Positions 1-12,961 are shown, numbered from the whole stretch's first letter. The stretch: DNA of 63,323 bases, filler included, from an uncultured Acidimicrobiia bacterium (GCA_964347285.1; 3 parts of 3 records of this genome joined end to end with filler, not necessarily neighbours in it), one strand, 5' to 3'. The notes: generated by a model not told the origin, from the letters alone. Made by a program: numbers and translations.

Positions 1-567
1 GACCCCGCGCACTCGTCGGCCGTCCACCAGGATCTCCTCCACCGGGCAGCCCTGAACGATGCCCGCGCCCATGGCCGCAGCGGCCCGGGCATAGCCCAGG
101 GCGACGGCCTCCGGGGTGGCGTAGCCGTCGGTGGGGCAGAAGGTGGCCGCGGCGACGTCGTCGAGACCGAGTCCGGGAACGATCCCGAGGGCCTCGCGGG
201 GAGTGATCAGACGGGACGGCACCCCGAGGCGGTTCTGCAGCGCCACCGCCTCCTCGAAGGCGGGGACCTCCTCCTCCCGGAGCAGGAAGAGGTAACCCCA
301 CTGCTTGAAGTCGATGTCGTCCCCGGGCTCCTCGCCGAATCGTCGCAGCCGCTCGATGGACTCGAGGGCGATGCGGATGTTGAGCTCGTCGGAGAACTGG
401 GCCCGGAACCCGCCGGCCGCCTTGCTGGTGGAGCCCGATCCCAGGGTGTCCCGTTCCAGGAGGAGCGTGTCGGTACAGCCGGCCCGGGCGAGGTGATAGA
501 GGGTGCTCGTCCCCACGACGCCTCCGCCGATGACGACGATCTTGCGGGATTCCGGCAGGGCGGCGAT
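1..567 (-). CDS. FAD-dependent oxidoreductase (sarcosine oxidase beta / DAO family), runs off the window edge; probable non-canonical start
   Basis: Minus frame reads IAALPESRKIVVIGGGVVGTSTLYHLARAGCTDTLLLERDTLGSGSTSKAAGGFRAQFSDELNIR (Rossmann GxGxxG plus the GSTxxAAG motif). Not in the ORF track. SD GAAGGAGGT at 579-571. Confidence 0.85.
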   Translation of the reverse strand, partial: MAALPESRKIVVIGGGVVGTSTLYHLARAGCTDTLLLERDTLGSGSTSKAAGGFRAQFSDELNIRIALESIERLRRFGEEPGDDIDFKQWGYLFLLREEEVPAFEEAVALQNRLGVPSRLITPREALGIVPGLGLDDVAAATFCPTDGYATPEAVALGYARAAAAMGAGIVQGCPVEEILVDGRRVRGV

Positions 568-738
568 GGCACCTCCTTCGGGGGGACGCTACCGGAGGGC
601 CAGCGATCTGTGCGCCTGTAACGAGGGCCCATGGCACTCCCAACTGGGCGAACAGTAGGGCGACCACGGGCCGCGCGTTGGGTGTAGAATCCACCGATCA
701 GCACCACGTTCCGTGGTACCCGAGGGAGGGAGGTCATA

Positions 739-3764: not shown

Positions 3765-3792
3765 ACTTGACATAACGTGGATTATGGGCGCA
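3765..3792 (-). other. Chromosomal dif site (XerCD)
   Basis: Minus strand TGCGCCCATAA-TCCACG-TTATGTCAAGT: 11-6-11 layout with the actinobacterial XerD arm TTATGTCAAGT; intergenic. Confidence 0.85.
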
Positions 3793-3878
3793 CTGGAAAA
3801 GCCCCGGACGGGAGGGCTTTCCTGGGCGGACCCCTCCCCGGCCTGACGGGCCGGCGGCCACGCGCCAGAATTGAGACG

Positions 3879-4805
3879 ATGCAGTCACGGATCGCATGCT
3901 TCGGGGCCGCCCACTTGGATCGAAGGGCGCGCGCGCTGGAACCGATCGTGGCGGCCACGTCCAACCCGGTGACGGTTCGCGAGTCGGCGGGAGGGGTGGC
4001 CCGCAACGTGGCCGAGAATCTGGCCCGGCTGGGAGACGACGTGGCGCTGGTGACTCGGGTGGGTCGGGATCGTTCTGGGCAATTGGTGGCGGCGATGTTG
4101 ACCGAAGCTGGAGTAGACACGACATGGCTCGACCGGTCGGAGGACACCCACACCGCTTCTTACACGGCGCTCCTCGAGCCCGACGGTCGTCTGTATGTCG
4201 GCTTGGCGGACATGGCGATCTACGACGAGATGACCCCCGACACCCTCTACGACGCGGCCGACGAGCTGGGCAGTGCCGATGGTTGGGTATTCGACTGCAA
4301 CCTGCCCACCGATTCGCTGAAGTGGCTGGCCGATCGTGCTCCCGAGGGAGCCCTCACCGTGGTCAACACCGTGTCGACGGTCAAGGCGGTGCGAGCCGCG
4401 GCCGTGCTCGACTCGATCGACCTGCTGGTCGTCAATCATGAGGAGGGCATGGCCCTCTCCCCCGGTGCGGGAGAGGAGTCGGAGGTAGCGGCCCGGCTTC
4501 GTGAGGCCGGCGTGGGCATCGTGGCGGTGACCGACGAGGGCGGCGGCGCCTACATCAGCGGAAGGGGCGTGTCTCAGTTCCTGCCGGCCCTCGATGCCGA
4601 AGTGCGGGACGTGACCGGTGCCGGAGACGCTTTCACCGCGGCGCTGGTGCACGGGTTGCTGGCCGGTCGAAATCTGATCGTCGCCGCCGAGCTGGGTCTG
4701 GCCGCTGCGGCGCTGACGATTGAATCCGAGGACGCCGTTGCCTCCGATCTCGACGGCACATCTGTGAGACGCCGGGCCGGTCTCGTGGAGAAGGATGGCC
4801 CATGA
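3879..4805 (+). CDS. psuK: PfkB-family kinase, probable pseudouridine kinase
   Basis: GGVARNVAENLARLG and DVTGAGDAF motifs; overlaps psuG start (ATGA). Confidence 0.8.
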   Translation: MQSRIACFGAAHLDRRARALEPIVAATSNPVTVRESAGGVARNVAENLARLGDDVALVTRVGRDRSGQLVAAMLTEAGVDTTWLDRSEDTHTASYTALLEPDGRLYVGLADMAIYDEMTPDTLYDAADELGSADGWVFDCNLPTDSLKWLADRAPEGALTVVNTVSTVKAVRAAAVLDSIDLLVVNHEEGMALSPGAGEESEVAARLREAGVGIVAVTDEGGGAYISGRGVSQFLPALDAEVRDVTGAGDAFTAALVHGLLAGRNLIVAAELGLAAAALTIESEDAVASDLDGTSVRRRAGLVEKDGP

Positions 4806-5710
4806 AGGACCGTTTAGCCCTGCACGAGGACGTCGAGGCGGCCCTGGCGAGGGGCGCCGCCATCGTGGCACTCGAATCCACTTTGATGGCCCATGGACTC
4901 CCCAGTCCCGAGAACCTCGAGGTCGCCGTGGCCCTGCGAAAGGCCGTTTTGGCGGCCGGAGCCGTCCCCGCCACGGTGGCGGTGCTCGATGGAATCATCC
5001 GGATAGGGCTGGAAGCCAGCGCGGTGCAGCGTCTGGTGACCGCCGAACTGCCCAAGACGAATGCCGCCGATCTGGCTGCGGTACTCGGCCGCCGCGGCAA
5101 CGGCGCCACCACGGTCTCCGCCACGATGCGCTGCGCCCAGCTGGCCGGGATCCGCCTCCTGGGCACCGGGGGGATCGGGGGGGTCCACCGTAACGCCGCC
5201 GAGACGTTCGACCTGTCCACCGACCTCTACGAATTGGCCCGGACTCCGGTCGCCGTGGTCTGCTCGGGGGCCAAATCGGTCCTCGATCTCCCCGCCACCC
5301 TCGAGGTGCTGGAGTCCCTCGGTGTTCCCGTGCTCGGTTATCGCACCAACTACTTTCCGGCCTTTCACGCCCGCAGCAGCGGTCTCCCCCTCGAGCATCG
5401 GGTCGACACTGCCGAGGAGGTGGCGGCCGTGGCTCAGGCCCATTGGGAGCTCGGCGGAGCGGGCATCGTCGTCGCCAACCCCGTTCCCGAGGAAGCTGCC
5501 ATCGATTGGGCAGACCTGGAGGCCCTCGTCGATCGAGCCCTGGCCGAATCCGTTCTGGAGCAGGTGACCGGAAAAGACATCACGCCGTTCCTGCTGGCCC
5601 GGCTCGCCGATCTCAGCGAGGGAGCCACGGTTCGAGCCAACGTGGCACTGGTCGAGGCCAACGCCGGCCTCGCCGCCGAGGTGGCCTGCGCTCTAGCCGC
5701 CCCGGACTGA
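4802..5710 (+). CDS. psuG: Pseudouridine-5'-phosphate glycosidase
   Basis: VALESTLMAHGLP, ATTVSATM, TGGIGGVHR and GKDITPFLL motifs. Confidence 0.95.
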   Translation: MKDRLALHEDVEAALARGAAIVALESTLMAHGLPSPENLEVAVALRKAVLAAGAVPATVAVLDGIIRIGLEASAVQRLVTAELPKTNAADLAAVLGRRGNGATTVSATMRCAQLAGIRLLGTGGIGGVHRNAAETFDLSTDLYELARTPVAVVCSGAKSVLDLPATLEVLESLGVPVLGYRTNYFPAFHARSSGLPLEHRVDTAEEVAAVAQAHWELGGAGIVVANPVPEEAAIDWADLEALVDRALAESVLEQVTGKDITPFLLARLADLSEGATVRANVALVEANAGLAAEVACALAAPD

Positions 5711-5715
5711 AAGGT

Positions 5716-7269
5716 CTACCGAGGCTCGCCGCGAGCCGCGGCGACCAACTCTCGTTTCAGGTCCCAGAGCCGCTCGGTGAGCGACACGTGGTAGCGGTGC
5801 GGATTTATGAGGCGGCGCACGCCGGGATCGAGTCGGTCCAGATCGACCCGGCGTCGCTCTCGGATCTCGTCCATGGACGGCGACTCGGCGACGCGCTCCC
5901 CCTCTGTCAGGACATCGACCAGTAAAGGCTCTACCGAGGTGATCTCGTCGCTCTCCAGGGTGCGGGTGCTCTCCGATCGCACCGGGTGGTGGAGCACGAG
6001 TGGTCCGGGGCTCGACAGGTCTTCGTCTGCGACTGCCAGCACATCTACCGAGGCCCGGTTGCGCTCGTCGTAGACGCGCCACACCCTCTTCTCCCCCGGA
6101 TTGGGCACCTTCTCTGGTGTTTCGGACACCTTCAACATCGGCGTCCAGACTCCCCCGCGCTGCAGTGCCACCGCCTTGTACACCCCGTCGAGAGCGGAAG
6201 CGCCGTGTGAGGTGATCATCCGGGTTCCCACCCCGTAGGTGAGCCGTCCGATGAGGTGGTCGGCATCGACGCCGTAGCGGGGCGCCTCTTCTTCGATCTG
6301 GGTGAGAATCTGCCAGATGGCCAGCTCGTCGAGTCCGCTCGACAGGACGATCGCGGTATCGGGGAAGCCGGCCCGGTCCAACATGTCGGCCGCCTGAATG
6401 GCGAGGTAGGCGAGGTCGCCCGAATCGAGACGGATGCCGATGGGCTGATGGCCCTTGCGGCGCAACTCCTCGAACACCGTGATCGCGTTGGGAATGCCGC
6501 TCTGCAGGGTGTCCACTGTGTCGACCAACAGGAGGCAGTCGTCCGGGTAGATGTCGGCAAACGCCCGGAACGCTCCCAACTCACCCTCCCCCATCGCCAT
6601 GAACACCTGGACCAGGCTGTGGGCGTGGGTTCCCTTGGGCGGGAATCCGAGAACATGGGATATGCCCACATTGGAGGTGAAATCGGCGCCGCCGATCAAT
6701 GCCGCCCTGGCCCCGGCGTTGCCGCCGCGTTCGGGAGCCCGGCGGAGTCCGAACTCCAACAGCGGCCTCCCCCGCCCGGCGGCGGCCACCCGGGAGGCCT
6801 TGGTGGCGATCAGGATCTGGTAGTTGAGGTGGTTGAGAAGTGGGGTTTCCAGTATCTGTGCCATGGCCAGCGGGCCCTGCACAATTGTCAGGGGAACATC
6901 GGCGTGGACGACCCGCCCTTCGGGGATGGCCCGGAGTGTGATCCCGGTGAAATCACCGTTGGCGCGCAGCCAATCGAGGAAATCTCGCTCGAACAGGGGT
7001 CGGCCCGTGGAGCCGGTCTGGCTCGCCAGATGGCCCACGTCCTCATCCGTAACCCGGGCCTGCTCCATCCAGTCGAGAAGCCACTCCAGTCCGGCGTTGA
7101 TGCAGTAGCCCGCTTGATGCTCTCCGTAGTTGGGAGCGGTCCGGAAGAAATGGTCGAACTGCACCGGCAGTTCGGCGAGACCCATGCGGAAGTAGAGCTG
7201 AGCCGAGGCGAGGTGGTATTGATCGGTGAAGAGGATGCCCTCGGCTGTGGCGCGCTCGTCCGGCTTCAT
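5716..7269 (-). CDS. pncB: Nicotinate phosphoribosyltransferase
   Basis: LFTDQY, EFGLRRA, GTHAHS, LLVDT and GIRLDSGDL motifs. Confidence 0.95.
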
Positions 7270-7277
7270 GGTGATTC

Positions 7278-7287
7278 ACGATAACCT
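7278..7287. promoter_or_regulatory. Overlapping divergent -10 elements for leaderless pncB and pncA
   Basis: ACGATAACCT gives TAACCT (+) 7 nt before ATG 7295 and TATCGT (-) 8 nt before ATG 7269. Confidence 0.65.
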
Positions 7288-7294
7288 CCCCTGC

Positions 7295-7879
7295 ATGGTC
7301 GAATACGACGCTCATACCGCCCTGATCGTCGTCGATATGCAGAACGACTTCGCGGATCAAAAAGGAAGTCTCTACGTCACCGGCGCCGAACAGGTGATCC
7401 CGGTGGTTAACACCGAGATAGAGCGAGCCCGCAGCGCCGGGGCCTTGGTGGTCTATACCCGGGATTGGCATCCTGAGGTCACTCCCCATTTCGCCAAGGA
7501 CGGCGGCATCTGGCCCGTGCACTGTGTGGCCGATACCTGGGGGGCTGCCTTTCATCCCGACGTGGTCGTCGAAGGGCCAACGATCTTCAAAGGGACCGGT
7601 GGAGAGGATGGGTACTCGGGGTTCGCCGTGCGCGATCCGCGTACCGGAGCCACCTCCAGCACCGGCCTCGACGATCTATTGGAGGCCCACGAAATCACCG
7701 GCGTCGTGGTGACGGGATTGGCCCTGGACTACTGCGTGAAGGCCACGGCATTGGACGCAGCCGCCGCAGGCCTCTCCACCCGGCTGCTGCGGGACGGTAC
7801 CCGGGCGGTCAACCTGGAAGAGGGGGACGACCGCCGGGCTCTCGAGGAACTGGAAGAAGCAGGAGTCGAAGTCGTCTGA
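7295..7879 (+). CDS. pncA: Nicotinamidase/pyrazinamidase
   Basis: ALIVVDMQNDF, DWHP, WPVHCV and GLALDYCV motifs; divergent from pncB. Confidence 0.95.
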   Translation: MVEYDAHTALIVVDMQNDFADQKGSLYVTGAEQVIPVVNTEIERARSAGALVVYTRDWHPEVTPHFAKDGGIWPVHCVADTWGAAFHPDVVVEGPTIFKGTGGEDGYSGFAVRDPRTGATSSTGLDDLLEAHEITGVVVTGLALDYCVKATALDAAAAGLSTRLLRDGTRAVNLEEGDDRRALEELEEAGVEVV

Positions 7880-7882
7880 GGC

Positions 7883-8890
7883 CTAGGGCGGCCCGGCAAC
7901 CGGAGCCGTGGAGCCCCGATCGATCACTTCGACCGGAAGCCCGATGACGGCGCCGGCCTCGAGGTCGGACACGCGGCGCTCCATGAGGTCGATGAGGAGC
8001 TCGACTGCGATCGAGCCTGATTTCTCGAGCGGCTGGCCGACCGTGCTGAGGCCGAACCGGGCCCCGAGGTCGATGCCTTCAAACCCGATGATGCTGAGAC
8101 GAGTCGGAACGGGCAGGCCCGATCTCCAGGCCCAAGCGAGCACGGACAAGCCCACCAGGTCCGAGGCGGCCACGACTGCGGTCGGGGGACGATGCAGGGC
8201 GTACAGGCTGGTCATCCGGCGGTCGATCGGGCCCGCCCGATCTTTGTCGGCCCGGTGGTAGCTGCTCGGAACCGCGATGCCGGCCGCTTCGAGAGCGGCT
8301 CGGTATCCCGCGAGTCGATCGGACGCGGCCGGGGAGGGTTCCCCTTCGGTCACAAACGCGATGGCGTTGTGTCCCAAGGCGAGAAGATGCTCGGTGGCCA
8401 CCCGTCCCTCCGCTACGTGGTCGCTGCAGACACTGTGGACCCGCTCGGCGGTGCGATCGAGAAGCACCACCGGCAGGCCCGCCTCGCCCAATCGGGCCAG
8501 ATCTGCGTTCCTGAGGTCGACCGAAATCACCAATACACCACCCACCGCCTGGGGCCGGGCGAGATCCTGGATCACACGCTCGGCCTCCTCGCCGGACCCG
8601 AGGAAATAGAGGGACAACTCATGGCCGGCCAGCATGGCTCGATGAGTGGCTCCTTCGAGTCGCTGGGCGGCACCAGGGTCGGGACCGGGCGGGATCACGG
8701 CCGCCACCGTGCTGCTCCGCCCCAACGAGAGGCTGCGGGCCAAGTTGGAGGGTCGGTACCCCAACTCGGCTATGGCGGCCAGGACGCGCGCTCGAGTCGC
8801 TTCCGCCACCGTGGCAGTGTCGTTGACTACACGCGAGACCGTCGCCTCGCTCACACCCGCCCTGGCCGCCACGTCTCTGATCGTGGCCAC
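7883..8890 (-). CDS. LacI-family transcriptional regulator
   Basis: TIRDVAARAGVSEATVSRVVN HTH, LGYRPS hinge, periplasmic-binding-fold C-terminus. Confidence 0.95.
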   Translation of the reverse strand: MATIRDVAARAGVSEATVSRVVNDTATVAEATRARVLAAIAELGYRPSNLARSLSLGRSSTVAAVIPPGPDPGAAQRLEGATHRAMLAGHELSLYFLGSGEEAERVIQDLARPQAVGGVLVISVDLRNADLARLGEAGLPVVLLDRTAERVHSVCSDHVAEGRVATEHLLALGHNAIAFVTEGEPSPAASDRLAGYRAALEAAGIAVPSSYHRADKDRAGPIDRRMTSLYALHRPPTAVVAASDLVGLSVLAWAWRSGLPVPTRLSIIGFEGIDLGARFGLSTVGQPLEKSGSIAVELLIDLMERRVSDLEAGAVIGLPVEVIDRGSTAPVAGPP

Positions 8891-8922
8891 CGGACCATCT
8901 CCGTCTCAGTGGCTGTCGGCTG

Positions 8923-9015
8923 CTATCGCAGAAAATACACGTCGGCCGAGGCCCCCTGGACGAGGAGTGCCAGGAAGACAGCCGCCGTTGTGGCAACCGT
9001 GATGATGCGCCGCAC
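8923..9015 (-). CDS. 30-aa secreted pre-peptide MRRIITVATTAAVFLALLVQGASA|DVYFLR (candidate signalling peptide)
   Basis: AGGAGG SD (9028-9023) 7 nt before GTG 9015; basic n-region, hydrophobic h-region, ASA cleavage motif, then six residues and TAG. Confidence 0.75.
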   Translation of the reverse strand: MRRIITVATTAAVFLALLVQGASADVYFLR

Positions 9016-9050
9016 AGTCATACCTCCTGATCGTGCTGCCGGGAAGATGA

Positions 9051-9066
9051 CACAGACCTCTCTGTG
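9051..9066. promoter_or_regulatory. Inverted repeat upstream of the peptide gene, candidate operator
   Basis: CACAGA-CCTC-TCTGTG next to a possible minus-strand -10 (CATCTT). Confidence 0.35.
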
Positions 9067-9148
9067 CGATGTCTCAGCCGCGCCGGCCGCGGCGGGCCGG
9101 CGGGCGCTCATCGCTACTCTTTGTACCCAGAAGCGGCCCTATGGGCCC

Positions 9149-12100
9149 TCACTGACTGCCTCGGGTAGGCAGGTGTTGGCCGGAGCGGCGCAGAATCGCC
9201 AAATCGCGACGAATGGTGGCCACGCTCACGTCCAGGGCAGCGGCCAGGTCCTCCACACGGGCCAGGGCCCCCTGCGCGGCAGCTTCCGACATCACGCGCC
9301 GCAGGCGCGCTCGCCTCTGCTCCGGTCCGGACAGCTCGGCGTCGGCCGGCTCGGCGATGGTCAGGACCACCTCCACCATGTCTCGATCCCGAAGCGTCCG
9401 GCCGAGAGCCGCCGCCGCAGCCGGAAGCCGAATGGTCACCAGGGTCGGCTCGGTGCCTCGCCAGGCCGCCGTGATGGCCCGGTGCTCGGGAACGCCTTCG
9501 ATGGCAGCGCGTTGCTCTTCCTCTCCGAGGTCGGCCAGCGCCTCGAGCAGGCCGCCGTGCGCCTCGGCCAGCAGGCGGCGGGCCTCCTCCGTCTCGCCGG
9601 CCCGGTCCATAGCCTGGTAGCACCACAGGCTCACCAGGTAACCCTGCTCCACTCCCTGGAGGTCTTCGGTGGCCAGGCGGCGGGCCAGCGCCAATGCCTC
9701 CCCTTCCTCTCCGATGGCCAGAAGGGCTGGGATACGGAGCGCCCGGATGCTGATCAAGAGGTCGGGCAGCCCGAGATCGGCACACATGGTCTCGGCCCGC
9801 TCGACCAGAACGAGGGCTTCTGAGGGTCGACCTGCATCCAATGCCACGGTTGCCGACGACCTGAGCAGCTGGGCGGTGAGCCATCCCTCTGAGGAACCTT
9901 CGACGGCGCTCAGACCTTCTTCGATCAGAGCGCCGGCTCCGGCCAGGTCACCCCGGCGACGGGCTACACCACCCAGAACGCTGAGGCACAGTGCTTGGCC
10001 CAGGCCGTCGCCGATCTCCCGGTAGTACGCCAACGCTCGTCGGGCATCTTCGGAAGCGGCACCGTCGTCGCCGAGGACGCGGTGCACCATCGACGCCCGG
10101 TTGGCAAGAGCCGTCGCCTCGCCGCGCCGATCGCCGATCGATCGCATCACGGAGCGGGCCTGCTCGAAGTGCTCGAGCGCCTGTCCCACCCGTCCCGTGA
10201 GGTGGCACAGGCTGGCCAGATTGACGAGATTGACCGCCTCTCCCCCTCGGTAACCGATCTCCCTGGCGATATCGATCGCATTCCGAAGGGCAGACATGGC
10301 CGTGCCGGTGTTGCCTCGCTCCGCGGCGATGACGGCCAACAGCGATGCCACCTCGACCACACCCCGGCGATCGTGGAGAGACTCGTAGATGGTGCCGGCT
10401 TGCCGGAGGACGTCTTCCGCCTCCTCATGACGCTGGACGTAGCTCAGGGCCAGTCCAAGGGCGTATCGGCCGTCGGCTGTGACGGTGGGATCGCCGGATG
10501 CAATCGCCGACTCCAGCACTCCGATGGCGTCGGTGTAGCGTCCGGTACGGCTCAGGACCAGGCCGAGCTCGACGAGGGGCCGGGCTACCTCGTGCTCTGT
10601 AGCCGAGGCGACTGCAGCCCGTGCGGCATGCTCGGCTTCGGCGAAGCGACCGACGTTGGCGTAATAGCGTGCCTTGCGAACAGCGAGCTCCGGTCGGAGC
10701 CGGGGATCGTCGCCCACTTCCCTCGTCAGGGATTCGATGATCCGGGACTGTTCATCGCGACGGCCCAGCACATCGAGCACCCCCTCGTAGATGGACAGCA
10801 CTTCGTAGCGCCGTTCTCTGGAGGCCACCGAGAAGCCCCCCGAAGCCAGAGCCTGGGCGTAGTGGCGGGCCGCGATCTCGTAGGCGTGTACGGCCACGGC
10901 CCGCTCGCCGGCCGCCGACAGGTACTCGAAGGCCTTGTCCGGGACTTCCGCCCTCGAGTAGTGGTGGGCGAGAGCATCGACGCGGTGATGGTGGAGTTCC
11001 TCGAGGTACTCGGCCGCCCTGCGGTGCAAGTCCCGGCGAGCCGTTTCGGGCATGCCGTGGTAGACAACGCGCCGCATCTGGGCATGGCTGAATCGGAATC
11101 CGTCGCCCTCGTCCACCAGCAGCCCCCTGCGGAGCGCTTCGTCCAGATCGGCCAGAACTTCCAGAGAGGGTCGTTCCGAGAGCCGAACCAGGCCGGGGGT
11201 GTCGGCAGCTTCGAGGACCGAAACGCCCTCGAGGACGGTCCGGACGCCGGGAGACAAGCGCTCCAGCCGCCCCTCGATCACGCTGGTCACGCCGGAACCC
11301 AAGGGCAGCTCCGCTTCTTCGGGCGCGGTGGTGTCCAAGACGGCCTCACCCACTTCCCCCGGTAACAGGGTTCCCGTTTGCTCGTGCAGGGCCTTGAGCG
11401 TCTCCAGGACGAGCAAGGGATTGCCGCCGGTGTCGTGGTAGACGGCATCGACAAAGCTCGAAGGAGCCCCAGTCCAGCCGAGTGATCTCTGAATGAGCTC
11501 TGCGGTCTCCTCGGGCGCCAGGGGGACGATTTCGAGGCGTTTCGTTCCGACGGTGCCGTCGAGGGCCAACAGGGTTTCCCAGGCTTCAGGGCGCTCTCTG
11601 GCCTCGCTGCTCCGGTAACTGAGAACGAGGAGCACTCCCGACGCGGCCAGTCGCTCCCCCATCAGGCCCAGGATCCGGAGCGAGTCGGCGTCGGCCCACT
11701 GCACGTCTTCCAGAACCACGACGTGTGGACTGACCAGGCCGAACGTCTCGACGATGCGAAGCAGCGCCTCGCGGAGCCGCTCGCCTTCTTCAGCGGTCTT
11801 GAGCGGTGGGGGCGGAAGCAGTTCGGGCAGGTGATCGAGGAGCGGGCCGATCAGGCGGGCCGCTTCTCGCAACCACACTTCGTCGACGAGCTCCACCAAC
11901 TGCCCGACCCGAAGGGCCGACAGGCCGCCCTCCAGGGCCCGTACCAACACCGAGTACGGTACGTAGGTCTCGAGCTCTCGACTCTCTCCCCACAGCACGC
12001 CCAAGCCTCTCCAGTGAGCATCCTCAGCCATGGCGCGCAGCAGGCGGGACTTCCCGACCCCCGGCTCGCCCTCCACCAGCACCACTCCCCCTCTCCCGGC

Positions 12101-12961
12101 CAGGGTGTCCTGCATCCGTCCCAGGAGGGCGGTCCGCTCGTCGGCGCGGCCCACCAGCGGAGTCGCGGTGGGTCCCTCTAGCAGCGGGGCCTGCGGTGCC
12201 GGTACGAAGGGAGGATCGGATTTCCGGCGTCTCTCCAGAATGTCGCGATAGAGGGCGGTGGTGGCCCGATCGGGTTCGGCTCCCAGCTCTTCTTCGAGGA
12301 TCGAGCAGCATCGCTCGTACTGCTGTAGTGCTTCGTTGAACCGACCGGCCAGGAAGCAGAGCCTCATCACCTCACGATGGGCCTCCTCGCGCAGCGGGTC
12401 GTGAATGACGACTCGTCGGGCGTACACCAGACCCTGTTCGTAGTCGCCGCTGGCCTTGTAGAACTGGACCAGCCGAGAGAGCGAGCCGAGGTACCTCTGG
12501 CGGAGCGACTCTCGTTCCACCAGACCCCAGTCGTCGTAGAAGCCGGCCAGGAAGTCCCCTCTGTAGAGGTCGACGGCCCGAATCAGGGTCCCGACGTCGG
12601 CCACGGCCCCCTCGTCGGGGTCTTCGCCGAGAAGGCTCTGGAACTCCCCCACGTCCAGCCAGAAGGGCGCATCCGTATTGAACCGGACGGTGTCGGCGGT
12701 GGCGATGATGTACGGCTCTGGCGATCCGATCTCACCGAGCACGCTCTGGATCTGCCAGAGGGCGTGGCTGAGTCGCCGACGGGCCCGTGATTCGTCGAGC
12801 TCCGGCCAGAACGTCCCCGCCAGGAGATCCCGGGTGTGCTCTCGGTGCAGGTTGGTCACCAGGTACGAGAACAGGGAACGGGCGACACGCGAGGGTATAG
12901 GTGGAAGGGCTTTGTCCCCCAGTTGGAGGAGGAACCCACCGAAGAGATAGATGCGAAGCAC
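9149..12961 (-). CDS. Large SARP/BTAD-STAND ATPase-TPR transcriptional regulator with C-terminal DUF1670-like HTH
   Basis: N-terminal wHTH and BTAD (DPLREEAHREVMRL); Walker A GEPGVGKS; Walker B VVLEDVQWAD; GGNPL; long TPR-like region; ends EDLAAALDVSVATIRRDLAILRRSGQHLPTRG. Confidence 0.9.
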   Translation of the reverse strand: MLRIYLFGGFLLQLGDKALPPIPSRVARSLFSYLVTNLHREHTRDLLAGTFWPELDESRARRRLSHALWQIQSVLGEIGSPEPYIIATADTVRFNTDAPFWLDVGEFQSLLGEDPDEGAVADVGTLIRAVDLYRGDFLAGFYDDWGLVERESLRQRYLGSLSRLVQFYKASGDYEQGLVYARRVVIHDPLREEAHREVMRLCFLAGRFNEALQQYERCCSILEEELGAEPDRATTALYRDILERRRKSDPPFVPAPQAPLLEGPTATPLVGRADERTALLGRMQDTLAGRGGVVLVEGEPGVGKSRLLRAMAEDAHWRGLGVLWGESRELETYVPYSVLVRALEGGLSALRVGQLVELVDEVWLREAARLIGPLLDHLPELLPPPPLKTAEEGERLREALLRIVETFGLVSPHVVVLEDVQWADADSLRILGLMGERLAASGVLLVLSYRSSEARERPEAWETLLALDGTVGTKRLEIVPLAPEETAELIQRSLGWTGAPSSFVDAVYHDTGGNPLLVLETLKALHEQTGTLLPGEVGEAVLDTTAPEEAELPLGSGVTSVIEGRLERLSPGVRTVLEGVSVLEAADTPGLVRLSERPSLEVLADLDEALRRGLLVDEGDGFRFSHAQMRRVVYHGMPETARRDLHRRAAEYLEELHHHRVDALAHHYSRAEVPDKAFEYLSAAGERAVAVHAYEIAARHYAQALASGGFSVASRERRYEVLSIYEGVLDVLGRRDEQSRIIESLTREVGDDPRLRPELAVRKARYYANVGRFAEAEHAARAAVASATEHEVARPLVELGLVLSRTGRYTDAIGVLESAIASGDPTVTADGRYALGLALSYVQRHEEAEDVLRQAGTIYESLHDRRGVVEVASLLAVIAAERGNTGTAMSALRNAIDIAREIGYRGGEAVNLVNLASLCHLTGRVGQALEHFEQARSVMRSIGDRRGEATALANRASMVHRVLGDDGAASEDARRALAYYREIGDGLGQALCLSVLGGVARRRGDLAGAGALIEEGLSAVEGSSEGWLTAQLLRSSATVALDAGRPSEALVLVERAETMCADLGLPDLLISIRALRIPALLAIGEEGEALALARRLATEDLQGVEQGYLVSLWCYQAMDRAGETEEARRLLAEAHGGLLEALADLGEEEQRAAIEGVPEHRAITAAWRGTEPTLVTIRLPAAAAALGRTLRDRDMVEVVLTIAEPADAELSGPEQRRARLRRVMSEAAAQGALARVEDLAAALDVSVATIRRDLAILRRSGQHLPTRGSQ

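Follow-up and report, generated by a model that had tools for sequence, protein, structure and literature searches.

The closest described relative of the system considered here is the AfsR/AfsS module of Streptomyces, rather than the RRNPP family of peptide receptors. The afsS gene lies directly downstream of afsR behind an afs box, its product contains two to five short repeats, and in pull-downs AfsS binds AfsR only when the repeats are present, as described in the available sections of PMC10832544. In AfsR itself the NOD and tetratricopeptide repeat (TPR) regions inhibit the SARP domain, ATP relieves this inhibition, and the protein is controlled by phosphorylation and ATP (PMC10936776, available sections); the same text describes SARP-dependent promoters in which the direct repeats are spaced by one turn of the helix and 8 bp separate the 3′ repeat from a weak -10 element. 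AfsR has very few genomic targets, of which afsS is the main one, and its native signal is called unknown in the accessible part of bioRxiv 10.64898/2026.09.02.748808. Peptide quorum sensing via cytoplasmic receptors is treated as a hallmark of the Bacillota, with Actinobacteria said to use small molecules, and RRNPP receptors are given as 285–473 amino acids (aa) long with an XRE-type helix-turn-helix (HTH) or a phosphatase domain (PMC10075063, in the part available). Here we describe a locus in a 63,323-nucleotide stretch of DNA (the window) from an uncultured Acidimicrobiia bacterium, in which the gene for a 1270-aa regulator is followed on the same strand by a 30-codon gene whose predicted product is a secretory signal peptide ending in the hexapeptide DVYFLR. 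The pair is a strong candidate for a peptide-based cell-to-cell signalling system, of a kind undescribed in the phylum. Window positions 1–22712 correspond to contig C36 of the assembly, the remainder being N or outside that contig; the assembly holding the locus is 2.63 Mb in 187 contigs, 90% complete and about 67% G+C.

The regulator and the small gene form a real pair that is conserved and widespread. Full-length regulator orthologues (30–45% identity over query residues 2–1269, E≤1e-99) are present in 35 of 61 related genomes, and in a phylum-wide sample a match at E≤1e-80 was found in 10 of 301 genomes, seven of them outside the order of the window's organism and six of those seven in one family. 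We assembled 44 distinct loci from 40 genomes that include the regulator C-terminus and at least 200 nucleotides (nt) downstream, and looked for open reading frames (ORFs) of 26–36 aa on the same strand, no more than 400 nt downstream, with Lys or Arg close to the N-terminus, 15 or more consecutive uncharged residues, small amino acids at positions -1 and -3 of a predicted cleavage site, and a tail of 5–8 aa. An ORF fitting this rule, 29–34 aa long and 58–209 nt downstream, is present in 41 of the 44 loci, as expected from a first-pass annotation of the window that had proposed looking for such genes beside orthologous regulators; the common build is MRR, a hydrophobic core, A-x-A and a tail of 6–7 aa. 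The same rule found one ORF on the opposite strand and none upstream of the regulator (44 loci each), five in 880 shuffled sequences, and one in 373 tiles within the regulator gene. One locus (L056, from the unpublished genome G322) enters the 41/44 count as well as the promoter-box count (33/40), the weight matrix, the tree and the covariation analysis described below, and none of these rests on L056 alone. The genes following the peptide gene differ among loci, and include those for LacI-family regulators, PAS histidine kinases, hydantoinase and others; the small gene therefore travels with the regulator. Public annotation already calls the peptides of nine of ten relatives that were looked up as genes ('hypothetical protein' where named), and no record of the 30-aa form in the window was found there.

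No signal-peptide ORF of this kind follows four shorter STAND relatives without the C-terminal domain (L052 among them, from an unpublished genome), and no convincing small downstream gene was seen at seven inspected AfsR-like loci that are not AfsR equivalogs. A protein search of genome contigs with the regulator alone returned five distant TPR/STAND matches, and a metagenome contig scan with the regulator alignment yielded 79 loci, for the most part generic BTAD-AAA relatives on short contigs. Neither of the two metagenome loci that reach the C-terminus (27–29% identity) has a signal-peptide ORF, and one of them has a box-like site before a longer ORF. There are also three assemblies from a single genus (G014:C14, G043:C29 and G052:C19; loci L047, L050 and L048) in which the regulator is split into several frames with in-frame TGA stops and the peptide gene is intact; these could reflect either assembly errors or decaying receptors.

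In the window the small ORF runs on the minus strand from a GTG at 9015–9013 to a TAG at 8925–8923 (30 codons, encoding MRRIITVATTAAVFLALLVQGASA followed by DVYFLR), with a gap of 133 nt (9148–9016) to the regulator gene. The first-pass annotation had proposed this frame, this spacing and an AGGAGG ribosome-binding site 7 nt before the GTG, and all three are correct to the base. A mechanical ORF list instead starts the gene at an ATG at 9111, giving 62 aa. We prefer the 30-codon reading because the predicted promoter is downstream of that ATG, which is itself formed by the first bases of a conserved DNA motif; the earlier view that the longer start is wrong is therefore borne out. An alternative ATG at 9021 (32 aa) sits 1 nt from the ribosome-binding site, and relatives begin with MRR. 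The peptide parts are MRR, IITVATTAAVFLALLV and QGASA, giving a basic n-region, an uncharged h-region of at least 15 residues and small residues at -1 and -3. These rule-based features and the alignment with relatives predict a substrate for Sec and signal peptidase I, consistent with the original description of a Sec signal peptide carrying six residues of cargo. No family for the 30-aa peptide was found in Pfam or NCBIfam.

An alignment of 30 peptides has Ala at -1 in all 30, Ala at -3 in at least 90%, frequent Pro at -4, an M-R/K-R start and an uncharged core. The stop is conserved in position after a 6–7 aa tail and uses TAA, TAG and TGA, which rules out a truncated form of some longer secreted protein, the alternative that had been named at the outset as able to overturn the proposal. 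The tails themselves fall into clade-specific sets: ILRPGH(P) and TWRPGHG; S[ILV]SDMS; AVVN[IM]R, AIMNMR, AVRNMH and SVVNIHL; GLDNMRP, GIDNMRL and EITNMHG; G[IV][KR]N[LM]GL and GGSNLGF; NGDFHR and TGDFHR; and NGNWGS, NGDWGV and DANWGN. Further tails are DIAHMP, DIGWAR, GTAYMI, SYYLIK and, in the window, DVYFLR. The tail is under purifying selection. In the ILRPGH clade five of the six tail codons vary synonymously among four genera sharing the tail, without a single replacement, and the type of stop codon varies; in a 15-member cluster at 90% identity the tail is altered in one member and about nine signal-peptide positions are variable. Among regulators that are 50–70% identical (31 pairs) tail identity is 78% and h-region identity 50%, and among regulators that are 40–50% identical the values are 18% and 27%. 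Lineages thus hold on to their own tail and differ from one another in it, the pattern that a determinant of specificity would show. Natural variants within 90% clusters (proteins P0032 and P0017) include a GLDNMRP peptide that has lost its stop and gained 13 residues, and an AVVNIR peptide that reads AVVNIL. The NGDFHR cluster also includes SGDWHR and NGDWHR, the latter bridging the F and W forms.

The peptide genes share a promoter of SARP type. The direct repeat GAGACA-N5-GAGACA matches at 9 or more of its 12 positions in 33 of 40 loci, compared with 113 of 2000 shuffled sequences, and at 10 or more in 29 of 40 loci compared with 13 of 2000. Nine nt after the second repeat there is a -10-like xANNNT, with A in 93% and T in 84% of 32 distinct promoters, in columns that were not used for aligning. 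When a weight matrix of the box and -10 element was used to scan the window's own 2.63-Mb genome (5.24 million positions), the window site scored 28.0 bits and the runner-up 15.7; the peptide-gene promoter is the sole outstanding SARP-type site in the genome. The recognition of this repeat would be by the SARP domain of the adjacent regulator. In the NGDFHR/TGDFHR clade (L029, L040) there is no GAGACA box and the recognition helix is changed (VARERLRSVLYR vs RARRRLSHALWQ), and in the AVVN[IM]R clade (L013, L014, L016, L011, L019) there is a different conserved upstream sequence (TTTCGATTCTGCCGATTTC...).

A second motif, TGAGCG[CG]AAGGT, is located 33–37 nt 5′ of the box in 26 of 32 loci; 18 of the 32 loci match it at 9 or more of 11 positions, compared with 6 of 960 random windows. 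In many loci the motif runs into the regulator stop codon, but loci with the stop at another place, the window among them, keep it too; the extra HTH at the regulator C-terminus is a candidate to bind it. A scan of the window's own genome for this motif (TGAGCGNAAGGT) gave no perfect site and no informative match. A scan of positions 8600–9400 found no consensus sigma-70 promoter; a single terminator-like site, a weak one, is on the other strand. Four loci (L001, L002, L004 and L044) gave no Rfam matches at E≤1.

The regulator has the features of a large SARP, with a SARP domain followed by a STAND/NOD ATPase and then TPRs. Pfam places BTAD at residues 121–242 and matches TPR_12 over four stretches, without a match to the winged HTH model (Trans_reg_C) and without the NB-ARC model. 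The wHTH-BTAD-ATPase-TPR architecture in the first-pass annotation is therefore supported by Pfam matches to BTAD, AAA_16 and TPR_12 and, for the winged HTH (wHTH), by a structural model, although the HTH at the C-terminus had been overlooked. An AlphaFold2 (AF2) model of residues 1–260 (mean predicted local distance difference test, pLDDT, 92.8) resembles the AfsR SARP structures 8k60 and 8hvr (E 3e-11 to 2e-10), with template modelling (TM) scores to these and to EmbR (2fez) of 0.67–0.72 over about 250 columns. A model of residues 700–1270 (pLDDT 92.5) is a long all-helical TPR solenoid followed by a small beta-hairpin/HTH domain. Its top PDB fold matches are the LGN/Pins TPR domains, which wrap extended peptides; the 50 best fold matches listed from the PDB include no RRNPP receptor, and the PDB sequence matches of the regulator include no RRNPP structure. 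Residues N914, R946 and N954 are invariant, and all three are within the region of the TPR solenoid that covaries with the tail (see below). Residues of this kind clamp peptide backbones or C-termini in other TPRs. The regulator scores 68.5 bits against the AfsR equivalog model NF053617 of NCBIfam, below the cut-off of 1430, and the genome has no match to the AfsR equivalog at E≤1e-150. In the ESM Atlas the nearest clusters have the same BTAD/AAA_16/TPR_12 arrangement, in one case together with a DeoR-like HTH, and the few that carry taxon labels are from Chloroflexota. The mature hexapeptide is below the size usable by the complex-prediction tool; the 30-aa pre-peptide was used in its place with regulator residues 640–1270 and gave a score of 0.02, a value that speaks neither for nor against an interaction.

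The divergence of the tails follows a specific part of the regulator. For 33 regulators we computed partial correlations between tail distance and the distance within 60-aa windows of the regulator, holding whole-protein distance constant. The highest values are at residues 801–980, in the TPR_12 region, with a maximum of 0.35 at 881–940. The mean over the TPR windows is 0.21, compared with 0.04 when the signal-peptide part of the gene replaces the tail. Of 276 pseudo-traits, each consisting of six contiguous columns from elsewhere in the regulator and taken with the same tree, so that the null keeps the tree, none reaches the TPR mean and two reach the maximum. A covariation between tail and TPR region of the sort that had been predicted is thus present. 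In a regulator tree of 36 rows the tails follow the clades. Within one family a duplication of the regulator gave two sister clades (support 95) that are both present in four genomes. One copy is accompanied by AVVN[IM]R and the other by NGNWGS, NGDWGV, DANWGN or DIAHMP.

The three remaining loci, in genomes G006, G001 and G003 (71–74% complete), have no signal-peptide ORF, and a peptide profile found no full-length copy elsewhere in these genomes. Instead, each has a second copy of the promoter box, followed by a ribosome-binding site and then tiny ORFs of 13–21 aa. There are three tandem genes in G006 (MKRTRTSGVVSIK, MRRIRTSGVVSIR and MKRTRTSGRVSIK), a single peptide in G001 (MKHTRKTGVVGIQ), and in G003 a peptide with an internally duplicated unit (MRRTLASGSVIIRRSGSVIIR), which is the only form with two unit copies. 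All retain a basic N-terminus and a tail of the type xVVxI[KR], and the hydrophobic core and A-x-A are gone. With these included, a small peptide gene is present in all 44 loci and the tail is its constant part. The three-gene tandem locus also holds a decayed fourth leaderless gene. In the same three loci the first box promoter (-10 TACGTT or TACCGT) precedes a conserved stretch of about 200 nt containing a repeated unit that ends in GGCTCCGCTAGGGC and is found again in the spacers separating the tandem peptide genes. The stretch has no matches in Rfam and might represent a small RNA, or else an element for processing or termination.

Table 1. Features of the locus and of related loci. Positions are those of the window unless a locus is named.
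Feature	Position	Strand	Basis or remark
Regulator gene (large SARP)	9149..12961	minus	GTG start, TGA stop 9151-9149, 1270 aa
SARP domain (OmpR-type wHTH + BTAD), residues 1-250	12212..12961	minus	Pfam BTAD 4e-23, AF2 model
STAND/NOD P-loop ATPase, residues 268-446	11624..12160	minus	Pfam AAA_16 1.7e-24
TPR solenoid (presumed sensor), residues ~700-1180	9422..10864	minus	Pfam TPR_12 2e-23, AF2 model
C-terminal HTH (HTH_DeoR/DUF1670), residues 1186-1270	9152..9406	minus	DUF1670 7e-11, HTH_DeoR 1.4e-8
Upstream motif TGAGCGCCCGCC, 35 nt 5′ of box	9099..9110	minus	consensus TGAGCG[CG]AAGGT
SARP-type direct repeat GAGACAtcgcaCAGAGA, 11-nt period	9059..9075	minus	weight matrix, 28.0 bits
-10-like hexamer CATCTT, 9 nt past second repeat	9044..9049	minus	promoter alignment
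Ribosome-binding site AGGAGG, 7 nt 5′ of GTG	9023..9028	minus	GGAGG-like sites in nearly all relatives
Predicted Sec-type signal peptide MRRIITVATTAAVFLALLVQGASA, codons 1-24	8944..9015	minus	reading frame, alignment
Codons 25-30, DVYFLR (predicted mature hexapeptide), and TAG 8925-8923	8923..8943	minus	
LacI-family regulator gene	7883..8890	minus	Pfam LacI/Peripla_BP_3; starts 32 nt past peptide stop
Isochorismatase/nicotinamidase-like gene	7226-7879	plus	
Nicotinate phosphoribosyltransferase gene	5716-7269	minus	
PfkB kinase and indigoidine-synthase-A-like (pseudouridine) gene pair	3777-5710	plus	
Leaderless peptide genes	L064:442-483, 590-631, 824-865; L065:421-462; L066:377-442		
Stretch of ~200 nt after first box	L064:155-370; L065:128-345; L066:84-300 and 480-600		
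PAS/HisKA/HATPase kinase genes after the peptide gene	L009:193-1218; L021:5579-6595; L045:215-1336; L049:208-1305; L057:4476-5636		also in L029 and L061
EAL-domain (c-di-GMP phosphodiesterase) genes	L146:1690-2925; L148:1780-3000	minus; plus	PF00563 1e-47 and 4e-42

There are several likenesses to AfsR/AfsS. Both regulators have an N-terminal SARP domain of the same fold, a STAND ATPase and TPRs, and in both cases a small gene lies directly downstream on the same strand. Both promoters have 11-bp direct repeats replacing the -35 element and a weak -10 within 2 nt of the same distance, and in both cases there are very few genomic targets. Both small products contain a short peptide motif, which in Streptomyces binds the regulator, according to the portion of PMC10832544 available. 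The AfsS-like ORFs found here (57–80 aa) repeat D-[MLFA]-H-A-T-x-E-P, and 20 of the 27 tail types contain [DN]-hydrophobic-[HRGS] (e.g. NGDFHR, AVRNMH and SISDMS), a resemblance to the core D-[MLFA]-H of the AfsS repeat that is suggestive only. There are also clear differences. The regulator described here is not an AfsR equivalog and has the extra HTH at its C-terminus, and its box is GAGACA, whereas the afsS promoters at all five AfsR loci examined have CGTTCAT-N4-CGTTTAT (CGTTyAT) followed by CAnnnT. AfsS is a cytoplasmic protein of 57–80 aa with three to four repeats, whereas 41 loci here have a Sec signal and a single tail of 6–7 aa. Finally, the pair is present in lineages with small genomes (2–4 Mb), not in Streptomyces.

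The layout recalls RRNPP(A) systems (Rap-Phr, NprR-NprX, PlcR-PapR, Rgg-SHP and AimR-AimP), to which the first-pass annotation had compared it. In both, a cytoplasmic TPR regulator adjoins a tiny pro-peptide gene, a mature signal of 5–8 aa comes from the C-terminus (here as judged from sequence features), each clade has its own tails, and the peptides of duplicated pairs have diverged; peptide units are tandemly duplicated in some lineages and the leaderless variants recall the SHP and LCP classes. The signalling logic is thus shared, but the receptor differs, being 1270 aa long with a SARP domain and STAND ATPase rather than 250–500 aa with an XRE-type HTH or a phosphatase domain, and AfsR/AfsS is closer. 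The RRNPP systems are from Bacillota and the pair described here from Actinomycetota; for this pair no proteolysis beyond signal peptidase would be needed. The available part of PMC10075063 describes an RRNPP detection tool that considers only receptors of 250–500 aa, which therefore could not have found the 1270-aa regulator. A search of the CC-licensed PMC literature and bioRxiv found no description of a SARP/STAND regulator paired with a secreted peptide. The initial view that no system of this kind is known in Actinobacteria accordingly holds for the exported-peptide form, but not for the module as such, since AfsR/AfsS has a similar layout. A third comparison is with MalT-type STAND activators, in which an effector, a NOD ATPase and a repeat sensor are combined and binding of a small inducer to the sensor releases auto-inhibition. 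The regulator shares the effector domain, NOD ATPase and repeat sensor, and auto-inhibition is stated in part for AfsR (PMC10936776, available sections), although the inducer proposed here is a peptide encoded next door, and the effector is a SARP rather than a LuxR domain.

The most likely explanation for these observations is an AfsR/AfsS-type module with an exported peptide partner, in which DVYFLR would be autoinducing via the TPRs of its own regulator; we regard this as an evenly balanced proposition. The regulator would activate the SARP-box promoter of the 30-codon gene, where direct repeats replace the -35 element and the -10 is weak, and the Sec signal peptide would be cut after A-S-A to free DVYFLR outside the cell. 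The hexapeptide would accumulate and be taken up, plausibly via an Opp/Dpp-type permease; the genome encodes three SBP_bac_5 proteins, which are a generic feature and a possible route of uptake. Binding of DVYFLR to the TPR solenoid would then lift the inhibition of the SARP domain by the NOD and TPR regions and close a positive, density-dependent loop. Outputs beyond the peptide gene are probably lineage-specific, and may here include a LacI-family regulator encoded next to it and possibly co-transcribed, and in another family an EAL-domain cyclic di-GMP (c-di-GMP) phosphodiesterase. We infer export, cleavage, recognition of the box by this regulator, uptake, peptide-TPR binding, the direction of the effect and the gating of the ATPase switch.

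Several points weigh against an exported autoinducer. Export and cleavage are predictions from rules, and the leaderless peptides of three loci cannot be exported by Sec, so that the tail can work with no Sec signal attached, as it might if its role were intracellular; AfsS itself works inside the cell. The window tail DVYFLR falls outside the commonest tail motif. The AVVN[IM]R clade (five loci) does not have the GAGACA box although its recognition helix is unchanged, and the window site was itself among the 32 training sequences of the weight matrix with which the genome was scanned. The covariation statistic is descriptive because the pairs are non-independent, and one of its 33 regulators is from an unpublished genome.

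The alternative that survives best is that the flow of information is one way, with the regulator sensing another cue through NOD and TPR (a metabolite, phosphorylation or a protein) and the secreted hexapeptide acting elsewhere without feedback. We consider this a possible reading, with perhaps half the weight of the autoinducing loop. The peptide gene being the only strong predicted SARP target supports an autoinduction loop and fits a one-way output from regulator to peptide equally well, just as afsS is the main AfsR target (bioRxiv 10.64898/2026.09.02.748808, accessible part) and AfsR is governed by phosphorylation and ATP (PMC10936776, available sections). Of 28 downstream ORFs scanned, moreover, 5 encode a soluble PAS histidine kinase as the next gene, although these neighbouring kinases have no membrane segment for sensing an external peptide. 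What a one-way output does not readily accommodate is that tail divergence follows the TPR region specifically, to an extent not reached by any of the 276 control traits, and that tails have diverged between duplicated regulators; the binding of AfsS to AfsR (PMC10832544, available sections) also argues for a peptide that acts back on its regulator.

A second alternative is an intracellular cofactor similar to AfsS, with the tail binding the regulator in the cytoplasm before or without export, and the hydrophobic segment serving to remove the cofactor by export, membrane sequestration or instability. The leaderless versions of 13–21 aa at three loci (MKRTRTS-GVVSIK and relatives), which keep the basic N-terminus and the tail, are as this would predict, as are the cytoplasmic location of AfsS and its binding to AfsR (PMC10832544, in the sections available) and the AfsS-like core in most tail types. 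We nonetheless think it unlikely. The A-x-A motif is conserved in 30 of 30 signal-bearing peptides, and if the peptide were neither exported nor cut, it is hard to see why a cleavage site would be selected for; the positive-inside rule would also place the tail outward. Less probable still is an uncleaved 30-aa single-pass micro-membrane protein that is merely a SARP-regulated target. Its length and hydrophobic core would fit, but the small residues at -1 and -3 and the frequent Pro at -4 are conserved, the tail is more conserved within clades than the hydrophobic core, and the leaderless variants have no membrane segment at all. A chance ORF in GC-rich intergenic DNA, to which the shortness of the gene and its absence from family databases might point, is refuted by its presence in 41 of 44 loci compared with 0–1 of 44 in the locus controls, by synonymous variation in the tail codons, by conservation of the ribosome-binding site and promoter, and by the nine of ten relatives already annotated, and we give it next to no weight.

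Three other types of small gene were considered and rejected. An arrest peptide of the SecM/ApdA type is contradicted by the variable downstream genes and by the length, since a chain with 6–7 residues after the signal would still be wholly inside the ribosome tunnel when translation ends; a leader peptide for a downstream operon does not fit neighbours that differ between loci; and for a lipoprotein signal there is no Cys.

Downstream of the peptide gene in the window is the gene for the LacI-family regulator, which may be co-transcribed with it because the gap is 32 nt and no terminator was found there, nor a strong hairpin (z -1.0); a strong hairpin follows the peptide gene in 14 of 41 loci. 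A LacI gene is also the next neighbour in L024. In the window it converges on an isochorismatase-family gene, beyond which are further genes for nicotinamide adenine dinucleotide (NAD) salvage and nucleoside metabolism (Table 1), and the LacI regulator may control some of these neighbours. The genome encodes four WhiB proteins; among 14 control genomes WhiB was matched in Corynebacterium only, which assigns the organism to the Actinomycetota, as the first-pass annotation had assumed. The PAS histidine kinase genes follow the peptide gene in several families, and such a kinase may have belonged to the cassette ancestrally as its third member. Perfect GAGACA-N5-GAGACA repeats with a -10 element precede homologous genes for membrane EAL-domain proteins in two complete genomes from a different family; one of these genes is directly upstream of the regulator gene, and both are candidate regulon members.

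If the proposed loop is correct, gene-encoded peptide signalling would reach the Actinomycetota joined to an NLR-like STAND switch. Regulators of this class, for most of which the activating signal is unknown, would also gain a simple ligand encoded in the genome. The system is simple enough for direct testing, with a six-residue peptide, one promoter and one regulator, and orthogonal paralogue pairs, each with one promoter and one peptide, would be useful parts for synthetic circuits in high-GC hosts. A broader and more tentative idea, which we hold to be possible but doubtful, is that large SARP-NOD-TPR regulators generally receive a short peptide motif from an adjacent gene, the AfsS repeats and the tails being two forms of one ligand that is intracellular in Streptomyces and a Sec-exported autoinducer here. 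On that view this would be the first gene-encoded linear-peptide quorum sensing in the Actinomycetota and the first with a STAND ATPase receptor. For AfsR/AfsS, a global switch for antibiotic production in Streptomyces, this suggests that the AfsS repeats may be the ligand of the AfsR TPRs, and the long-sought native activating input of AfsR would then be named.

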